3,487 nucleotides of DNA from Escherichia coli (GTDB lineage: Bacteria > Pseudomonadota > Gammaproteobacteria > Enterobacterales > Enterobacteriaceae). Below, in pieces: positions 1 to 3,487 of the stretch. The position numbers and the translations under genes are program-made. The stretch lies in assembly GCF_003334335.1 (NCBI RefSeq), contig NZ_QOWQ01000084.1; one strand, given 5' to 3'. The notes under the pieces are model-generated. The model was given only the letters and a program-made list of their open reading frames with translations. It was not told the origin of the DNA and did not search any database. Within the stretch, counting starts at the first letter, position 1. Each line of letters starts with the position of its first letter.

Positions 1-977
1 GTCAGAAATATACGGCCGGCAAGGTGTGGAGCTGAGCCGTTCACTGCTGTCGGGCTGGGTGGATGCATGCTGCCGGCAGTTGTCTCCGCTGGAAGAGGCG
101 CTTCATGGCTATGTGCTGACTGACGGTAAGCTCCATGCTGATGACACGCCTATCCCGGTGCTGTTGCCAGGCAATAAGAAAACGAAGACCGGGCGGTTAT
201 GGACCTACGTTCGTGACGACCGTAACGCCGGGTCAACGCTGGCGCCGGCGGTGTGGTTCGCTTACAGCCCGGACAGAAAAGGCATCCATCCGCAGACCCA
301 TCTTGCGGGGTTCAGTGGTGTACTGCAGGCGGATGCATACGCCGGGTTCAACGAGCTGTACCGGGATGGCCGGATAACGGAAGCCGCCTGTTGGGCTCAC
401 GCCCGCCGTAAAATCCACGATGTGCACGTTCGCACCCCGTCAGCCCTGACGGAGGAAGCGCTGAAACGGATCGGCGAACTGTACGCCATCGAGGCAGAGA
501 TAAGGGGAATGACGGCGGAGCAGCGCCTTGCCGAACGTCAGTTGAAAACGAAACCGCTGCTGAAATCCCTGGAAAGCTGGCTGCGTGAAAAGATGAAAAC
601 CCTGTCGCGACACTCAGAACTGGCGAAAGCGTTCGCATACGCCCTGAACCAGTGGCCGGCGCTGACGTACTATGCAGATGATGGCTGGGCTGAGACGGAC
701 AATAACATCGCTGAAAATGCGTTGCGGATGGTCAGTCTGGGCCGCAAAAACTACCTGTTCTTCGGTTCGGATCATGGAGGAGAGCGGGGAGCGCTGCTGT
801 ACAGCCTGATCGGGACGTGCAAACTGAACGGAGTGGAGCCAGAAAGCTACCTCCGCTATGTCCTTGACGTCATAGCCGACTGGCCGATAAACCGGGTCGG
901 CGAACTGCTCCCCTGGCGCGTAGCACTGCCGACTGAATAACACATCCCCGTCAATACGGTTCTTGCTGCACGCTTAC
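1..977 (+). mobile_element. IS66-family insertion sequence, right (3') end; inferred terminus near 977
   Basis: Transposase gene ends at 940. The minus-strand reading of 962-977 is 5'-GTAAGCGTGCAGCAAG, and IS66-family ends are recalled to begin 5'-GTAAGCG. The flanking minus-strand gene appears interrupted exactly here. The boundary is inferred and could be off by a few bp. Confidence 0.65.
2..940 (+). CDS. IS66-family transposase, C-terminal portion (5' end outside the window)
   Basis: Reading frame is open from position 2 with no upstream stop, so the gene is truncated by the window edge; stop TAA at 938-940. The C-terminal sequence ...[52 protein letters not shown]...ELLPW matches the conserved C-terminal signature I recall for IS66-family transposases. 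The ORF track's GTG at 26 is probably not the real start. Confidence 0.88.
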
Positions 978-2280: not shown

Positions 2281-2289
2281 GGTTAAATC

Positions 2290-2308
2290 TCCGTATGGTT
2301 CATACGGA
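2290..2308 (-). promoter_or_regulatory. Perfect 8-bp inverted repeat (TCCGTATG-GTT-CATACGGA) overlapping the Shine-Dalgarno of the HUH-protein gene
   Basis: Read directly from the sequence. The 3' arm on the minus-strand mRNA contributes the GGA of the GGAG ribosome-binding site, 7-10 nt upstream of ATG 2280. Confidence 0.35.
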
Positions 2309-2412
2309 ATAACCACGTCGTAAAAAATGCGCAGAACCCCTGAGGTGACCTCCGGCAGGACACTGTCTCAGGCACTCTGTGATAACCCGAACGGTCATCG
2401 CCGGACTGACGA

Positions 2413-2829: not shown

Positions 2830-3220
2830 TCAGCCCCGACAAATACGAGTCCCCTTCAGAAGATACAGGCCGGTAATGCCTGAACGCCTGCCCCTCTGTA
2901 CACCATTCCCTTTTGATTTCGAATTCTTTGTTGCCGTTATACTGCTTAATGTTCCCGATCTTCCGGTGCACAGATAACACCGGAGTCATCGTAGCGCGGA
3001 TTCAAGATTCAGGTGACATATTTCCAGACGGAAGCCGGCACGCGATCGTAAAGTTTGTTCATTGTCAGTTCTGCCAGCCGGTGATCGACCGCAGAGTTAA
3101 AGGCTTCCAGCTCCGCAGGGGTAAGTTTATAACGTGTGTGGGAAATCACTTTTTCCAGCGTCTCCCGGGATGAACAACGACGGAACTGCTCTGGTTTTAA
3201 CTTCCATTCGTCTCTCGTTA

Positions 3221-3487
<267 letters not shown>

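Follow-up and report, generated by a model that had tools for sequence, protein, structure and literature searches.

A candidate cis-acting translational repressor: start-site-masking hairpins in the leaders of YagK/YfjJ-family HUH nuclease genes

In the fold-back inhibition described for IS10 and IS50, an upstream segment complementary to the ribosome-binding site (RBS) masks read-through transcripts and guards the element against outside transcription, an arrangement that requires the native start site to lie between both arms. Translational coupling of plasmid rep genes, as in repY-repZ of ColIb-P9 and tap-repA of R1, also places the RBS in a stem, and here a short upstream ORF ends beside the main start. 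HUH origins, for their part, typically combine a conserved loop or flanking box with a covarying stem. A stem-loop in the 5' UTR of IS200 tnpA sequesters the Shine-Dalgarno (SD) sequence of an HUH transposase, and its disruption raises ribosome binding and expression (PMC4513863).

Here we analyse a hairpin at the start of an HUH-protein gene in a stretch of Escherichia coli DNA of 3,487 bases (hereafter, the window), which shares 99.9% identity with E. coli chromosomes and sits within a decayed genomic island. The plus strand carries an IS66 transposase gene (26-940) and, divergent from the gene under study, an ORF for a small zinc-ribbon membrane protein (2479-2676). On the minus strand lie a zinc-ribbon/DUF7828 gene (1161-1544) with a second, truncated one beside it, the gene of a 189-aa protein of the YagK/YfjJ family ('inovirus Gp2 family'; RefSeq CDS 1711-2280, ATG 2280-2278) and a truncated hha gene (3009-3188), whereas only the start of an IS3 element (3483-3487) is included. 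IS66 adjoins the truncated zinc-ribbon gene (window 1-940 and 979-1164), and hha has lost its N-terminus beside the IS3 insertion. In every other genus the nuclease gene is followed by alpA, which the window copy lacks. The divergent ORF, which encodes a zinc ribbon plus a transmembrane segment and points away from the nuclease gene, has weak PHROG matches whose function is not known there; its RefSeq start at 2479 reads the non-standard ATC, with GTG 2482 and ATG 2487 as alternatives.

Of 5,426 complete E. coli genomes, 3,652 carry the leader together with the gene start, frequently more than once (median 2, maximum 6 per genome), and nearly all of these copies are chromosomal, with plasmid-borne ones at 5 of 7,359 places. 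Strains Nissle 1917 and ATCC 25922 are among the carriers, with copies at 99% identity. A metagenome scan recovered E. coli-like copies alone (93-100% identity), a scan of viral sequences gave three loci, and a single-protein scan of genome contigs returned two contaminant contigs and nothing else. E. coli-type fragments of the gene on tiny, low-coverage contigs of unrelated Gram-positive assemblies, namely Paenibacillus tengchongensis NODE_59 (L002; coverage 0.59, 95% identity) and a Collinsella MAG (L003; 82% identity), are most likely assembly contamination.

The protein belongs to family YagK_YfjJ_C (PF11726) and carries the HUH motif H94-Y-H96 and the catalytic Y168-x-x-K171. Its HUH fold was confirmed, the closest folds being those of NS1, SIRV Rep, Helitron, RepB, AAV Rep and RAYT, and the metal-binding motif, the tyrosine of YxxK and the fold by which the HUH endonuclease superfamily is recognized are thus all present. 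M1 is invariant in 17 homologues. Searches with the protein yielded no NCBIfam model, nothing among PDB sequences and, in PHROGs, one family of 'unknown function' and no other. The RefSeq name points to inovirus gpII, the replication initiator of filamentous phages. We rejected this identity: a single unannotated 4.4-kb record matched among 50,697 phage records, and the genes occupy int/alpA-type chromosomal islands and large plasmids instead. Genes of the YagK/YfjJ ('inovirus Gp2-like') type belong to the core of int/alpA genomic islands; in the literature we found neither a function nor a regulation reported for them.

An inverted-repeat search found two arms, 2290-2297 (TCCGTATG) and 2301-2308 (CATACGGA), 100% complementary and separated by the 3-nt GTT, and so confirmed the hairpin that the initial annotation had placed at 2290-2308, with an 8-bp stem and a 3-nt loop overlapping GGAG. 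Read on the minus strand, the 5' arm UCCGUAUG (2308-2301) and the 3' arm CAUACGGA (2297-2290) enclose the loop AAC (2300-2298), and this core alone folds with -9.9 kcal/mol (z = -4.85). Folding of the leader RNA, which had been suggested as a check, bore out the pairing of GGAG and added that of the AUG: the 48-nt RNA 2322-2275 reached a minimum free energy (MFE) of -19.5 kcal/mol, against -7.25 +/- 2.05 for its shuffles (z = -5.98, 0 of 200). The full RBS-masking element computed in this way spans 2278-2317 of the minus strand (9 + 8 bp). Its inner helix of 9 bp pairs 2301-2309 with 2289-2297, including U2309.G2289, and its outer helix of 8 bp pairs 2310-2317 with 2278-2285, with an internal loop AUU (2288-2286) between the two. 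All of the SD sequence GGAG (2289-2292, minus strand, 8 nt 5' of the ATG) is paired in the MFE structure, G2292, G2291 and A2290 within the 3' arm and G2289 in the U.G pair with U2309, and the start codon AUG (2280-2278) is paired in the outer helix. The original extent therefore stands as the core, whereas the functional unit is the larger 2278-2317, in which the start codon is buried as well.

Rfam covariance models gave no relevant match at E up to 5. An intrinsic terminator, which would need a U-run directly behind a GC-rich stem, was rejected: on the minus strand GAUUUAACC comes next, on the plus strand an A-run, and a terminator scan made no call here. Perfect 8-bp hairpins with loops of 3-8 nt number two in the window versus 0.38 expected from dinucleotide shuffling, and the chance expectation of one falling on this RBS is ~0.003. 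Nonetheless, 26% of the shuffled windows hold at least one such hairpin (P = 0.26), so that the hairpin alone is not significant. This frequency, along with the decay of the island (truncated hha, IS66 and IS3 insertions, zinc-ribbon pseudogene), would fit a functionless chance palindrome in a degraded, IS-riddled copy. We consider this highly improbable: the gene is intact, the 16 stem bases are unchanged in 52 of 53 distinct E. coli-type sequences and altered at one position in the other, with flanks and loop varying freely, and the structure is kept from genus to genus through compensatory changes and turns up again in paralogues. The significance of the predicted element rests on this conservation and not on any single sequence.

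For that comparison we used the leaders of E. coli variants, of 13 orthologues (63-70% protein identity) from Klebsiella, Pectobacterium, Rouxiella, Serratia, Cedecea, Enterobacter, Salmonella, Edwardsiella and metagenomes, and of nine distant paralogues, two of which are yfjJ and yagK of K-12 while others are carried by plasmids of Pseudomonas and Proteus. In all 13 orthologues from other genera the SD sequence is paired with an upstream anti-SD of the CUCCGG type, CCGGAG being the 3' arm, and compensatory changes are present. Across these 13 related sequences, 77.7% of the cells of the CUCCGG...CCGGAG helix are paired versus 29-41% with the partner slid, and RNAalifold finds the same helix. 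Two-sided changes occur at six pairs of the orthologue alignment, which 0 of 500 shuffles reached, although these sequences are related by descent and p-values drawn from them, here and below, overstate independence.

Similarity between genera starts sharply ~60 nt 5' of the ATG, and from there the leaders share the order T-box GTATTTTTTTAC, anti-SD CUCCGG, GTAATGG, TATGAAC, nATAACC, ACCGGAG, 9-10 nt and ATG. E. coli departs from this layout. The ancestral anti-SD column there reads CGUGG and is paired with UAACCAUG, and the E. coli hairpin is a positionally different helix, with a new anti-SD beside TATG and a remodelled 3' arm, the two new arms having arisen through substitutions and loop deletion. 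The loop measures 3 nt in the window, after a 5-nt deletion, 8 nt in other E. coli copies and 19-23 nt in other genera. The description of a perfect 8-bp stem with a 3-nt loop thus holds for the window but not as the general form, of which it is a derived E. coli variant. The outer helix differs even among E. coli copies (GGTTA, GGCTA or GGATA). A covariance model built from the non-E. coli leaders recognizes the E. coli leader weakly (15 bits, E 2.7), consistent with a helix that was rebuilt rather than inherited. What is conserved is the predicted masking, not the sequence.

Seven of the nine distant paralogues also mask their own, differently spelled SD sequence; at 30-45% identity, the SD/anti-SD pairs read AGGAAG/CUUCCU in L008, UAGG/CCUA in L110, CAGG/CCUG in K-12 yagK and GAGAG/CUCA in Pseudomonas. 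We further scored the energy needed to open positions -14..-6. The window copy requires 9.7 kcal/mol, the 98th percentile among 61 neighbouring control genes (median 4.4, 90th percentile 6.8 kcal/mol), and most family members fall at 7-13 kcal/mol. Values range from 9.9 to 13.7 kcal/mol in other E. coli variants, from 2.8 to 10.6 in orthologues (Mann-Whitney p = 8e-6 versus controls) and from 3.1 to 12.6 in paralogues (p = 3e-4), and two members, Rouxiella L093 and K-12 yfjJ, show little masking. The claim that the hairpin sequesters the RBS of the HUH-protein gene was thereby upheld, since the masking is kept in 13 of 13 orthologues, rebuilt in E. coli and found in seven of nine paralogues.

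Individual paralogue loci added some detail. The K-12 yagK leader (L100:8950-9015) folds into a nested hairpin of -26 kcal/mol, whose outer arm CCUGUAU/AUACAGG covers a weak SD sequence, and it also holds GTATGG; K-12 yfjJ is devoid of a comparable structure. Two further loci, both in E. coli islands (L008:1501-1578 and L009:1501-1545), have leader, hairpin and ATG but no gene behind them. We rejected the reading of this geneless hairpin as an autonomous element, as it belongs to an internally deleted pseudogene with the ATG fused to about codon 140 (..AHFP..). The L008 copy lies downstream of a different Gp2-type gene (L008:854-1453), which has its own, unrelated SD-masking hairpin, CUUCUUCCUGUG/CACGAGGAAGAA.

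Collectively, the computed structure and stability, the compensatory conservation, the helix replacement in E. coli and the recurrence in paralogues make it probable, at roughly 60%, that the YagK/YfjJ mRNA leader contains a cis-acting translational repressor with this hairpin at its core. Judged from sequence comparison and folding, the start-site-masking hairpin most likely holds translation of the nuclease low. The upstream anti-SD UUCCG (2309-2305) would pair with the SD sequence CGGAG and, in the window copy, a second helix would pair the AUG as well; with both occupied, the 30S subunit could bind only as the structure of ~-19.5 kcal/mol breathes. If the 5' arm lies within the transcript and the effect acts on translation, as we infer, synthesis of a potentially harmful DNA nuclease would be kept low whichever transcript carries the leader. 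The block would be mostly constitutive, as in IS200, rather than switched, and the single-stranded U-tract 3 nt upstream may provide a ribosome standby, S1 or Hfq site. The control principle is ordinary and its mechanism already known; the place and the leader are new. A conserved RBS-masking leader would mean that cells or islands limit the nuclease tightly, which fits a DNA-cutting enzyme, and opening the stem should permit expression of the protein and discovery of its activity.

Comparison of the two strands does not by itself prove a role at the RNA level. The sense strand is favoured in the extended element of the window alone, where its fold as RNA exceeds that of the antisense in stability by 4.5 kcal/mol; in the family as a whole the antisense folds about equally well, and the sense strand is more stable in just 7 of 23 cases. 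Such symmetry, like a perfect palindrome beside a gene start, would also be expected of a double-stranded operator, at which a dimeric repressor (the HUH protein itself, an AlpA-type protein or another) would sit over a promoter and control transcription. The T-box even holds a -35-like TTTACN with up to 5 of 6 matches in some genera. However, no acceptable -10 lies at a workable distance: TTTACN and TATGAA are 14 nt apart and TATGAA is without the key final T, while an xAxxxT spaced at 18 nt is limited to 9 of 14 leaders, and the E. coli mRNA made from it would begin past the SD sequence. The half-sites, moreover, change between lineages with their complementarity kept, they stand anywhere from 3 to 23 nt apart, too variable a distance for a dimeric DNA-binding protein, and G.U pairs outnumber C.A mismatches by 12 to 3 at the nine better-conserved pairs of the helix. 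We accordingly regard an operator as quite improbable. More generally, a promoter between the arms, whether for fold-back or for an operator, was rejected as a general explanation, no sigma-70 fit being found there. The sole 9-of-12 sigma-70 match on the strand of the gene (2564-2535) lies 250 nt upstream and is at chance level.

Masking, on the other hand, does not account for all of the conservation. The T-box of the window (AUUUUUUAC, 2320-2328, minus strand) precedes the element by 3 nt and delimits the cross-genus block on its 5' side, and the TATGAAC box (2298-2304, minus strand) supplies the loop and the upper end of the 5' arm. Both boxes are conserved more strongly than the stem: T7, T8 and T11 of the T-box are invariant, A13 and C14 are kept in at least 90%, and TATG is invariant in all orthologues. 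The T-box of the Gp2 leader is not the tail of a terminator, nor does it make a convincing -35 joined to a fitting -10. Together, T-box and TATGAAC constitute a short candidate target in DNA or RNA.

Besides translational control, the initial annotation had named an operator for autoregulation and a nick or origin-like hairpin. In the latter alternative the hairpin works as DNA, extruded or single-stranded: the HUH protein would recognize or nick it as an origin, an oriT-like site or a recombination site of the island, the cleavage or guide function would fall to the T-box (..TTTAC), to TATGAAC or to both, and RBS masking could be a second use. The fold of the protein is nearest to nickases that work at hairpin-flanked sites, and a conserved box with a covarying stem would match, by analogy, the typical pattern of HUH origins. 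The sharp onset of cross-genus conservation at the T-box points in the same direction, as do the identity of GGTTATGAA between enterobacterial leaders and those of Pseudomonas paralogues at only 36% protein identity, the second T-box just 3' of the gene, at the alpA leader, and the good folding of the element as DNA on both strands. Nicking, however, leaves unexplained that the 3' arm invariably holds the SD sequence, correctly spaced from the ATG, even in paralogue hairpins of unrelated sequence. In addition, TATG is looped out in some lineages but paired in E. coli, the loop ranges from 3 to 23 nt, a second hairpin copy is absent within 15 kb on either side, 2200-2500 is free of iterons, and the geneless copy in L008/L009 is merely the deleted pseudogene described above. 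We therefore consider a DNA site unlikely as the explanation of the hairpin; since HUH enzymes act on hairpin-flanked sites, a role as DNA substrate, maybe alongside masking, is kept as a candidate. That the ~60-nt leader is dual, an RBS mask on the mRNA and a site on single-stranded or extruded DNA that the HUH nuclease binds and nicks, appears to us decidedly unlikely. If true, the T-boxes flanking the gene would mark where the island core is replicated, mobilized or recombined with variable cargo, and a first function would be at hand for a 'y-gene' family found in most E. coli genomes.

Related boxes were observed elsewhere at these loci. About 120 nt upstream of the real leader, the window carries a second one on the minus strand (2396-2447) that resembles the ancestral leader: a T-box (2447-2440) is followed by CAACGCCGG-N16-CCGGCGATG, with arms at 2421-2429 and 2396-2404. 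Its AACAACGCCGG equals the Serratia leader sequence, and one arm reads CCGGCG in the window versus CCGGAG in most E. coli copies, which suggests that the ancestral leader was duplicated in tandem within the E. coli lineage and that this upstream copy has been decaying. The second perfect 8-bp palindrome of the window, TGTTTTTT-aatgta-AAAAAACA (2428-2449), lies in this divergent intergenic region and overlaps the upstream T-box.

In ten orthologue loci (L094:3110-3231, L111:2108-2228, L095:3108-3229 and seven others) the stretch that separates the gene from alpA forms a conserved structured leader of its own. This one opens with the T-box GGTATTTTTTTACA, preceded in 5 of the 10 loci by a strong terminator-like stem (z -5.1 in L111), and its CCUCUGA pairs ~65 nt downstream with UCAGAGG, overlapping the alpA SD region CAGAGGGAGAG. 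A covarying hairpin sits inside this helix, with GGAG/CUCC pairings as possible alternatives; the alpA leader may be a second leader of the RBS-masking or attenuator type. In the orthologue loci a GTAT(6-7)AC box marks the 5' edge of both the Gp2 and the alpA leaders, and in Serratia L097 both copies of the box share one deviation, GTAATTTTTAACA.

The invariant ATG within TATGAAC admits yet another explanation, in which the upstream AUG (2303-2301) is the key feature and translation of a leader peptide or N-terminal extension from there would open the 3' arm and be coupled to initiation at the main start, after the manner of repY-repZ or tap-repA. In the window this AUG, located in the stem, opens a six-codon ORF (2283-2303, minus strand; AUG AAC CAU ACG GAG AUU UAA, MNHTEI*), whose UAA stop lies 2 nt 5' of the main AUG. 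The upstream ATG is invariant in all orthologues; in 13 of 13 outside E. coli its distance from the main start is exactly 30 nt and its frame the same, with the frame open in nine of them, and Klebsiella has an SD-like GGTGAT upstream of it. Nevertheless, independent in-frame stops occur in four orthologues and one Pseudomonas paralogue, and the E. coli ORF varies between 6 codons and 23 codons, the latter out of frame and overlapping the start, and copies with the 8-nt loop have the upstream AUG in another frame; with such stops and a frame that differs between E. coli subtypes, neither a leader peptide nor an N-terminal extension is a consistent explanation. The upstream AUG is also without a convincing SD sequence in most leaders, is itself base-paired and is absent from several paralogues that do mask, whereas the main M1 is invariant. 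We thus hold this explanation to be improbable. Longer upstream ORFs of 32 codons (ending AUGA at the upstream AUG) and 69 codons were rejected as genes, as they exist in some variants only.

Translational repression by masking, the reading we prefer, can be set against each of the described systems. The leader resembles HUH origin hairpins (the pMV158 dso, the stem-loop with the CRESS-virus nonanucleotide, REP-RAYT and the ends of IS608) in that an HUH gene stands beside a conserved hairpin with invariant boxes. It differs from them in its unconserved loop size, in the pairing of the invariant TATG in E. coli and in a 3' arm that is always the SD sequence, which those origins do not require. 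With repY-repZ and tap-repA it shares the buried RBS of a replication-type gene and an upstream ORF that ends next to the main start; in contrast to those, the present ORF is unconserved in frame and length, has no SD sequence of its own and starts in the stem, and the leader gives no sign of an antisense RNA or a pseudoknot. As in IS10 and IS50, the RBS of a mobile-element enzyme is masked by an upstream complementary segment, but no convincing promoter lies between the arms here, the E. coli candidate starting past the SD sequence.

The IS200 tnpA leader differs in several respects. The two leaders have no sequence similarity, and the proteins belong to different families, YagK_YfjJ_C here and Y1_Tnp in IS200. 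The IS200 stem-loop of ~70 nt acts together with the antisense RNA art200 and Hfq, whereas a promoter scan found no antisense promoter here. IS200 also has an upstream bidirectional terminator, and the YagK/YfjJ leader is without a significant one; a terminator of this kind before the hairpin was rejected, as the E. coli stem at 2332-2379 does no better than its shuffles (z -0.86) and the T-run of other genera is not preceded by a stem. What the two leaders have in common is the arrangement as a whole: a cis-acting hairpin in the leader of an HUH enzyme on a mobile element, in which a good SD sequence is paired and, as known for IS200 and predicted here, binding of the 30S subunit is limited and the enzyme stays scarce (PMC4513863).
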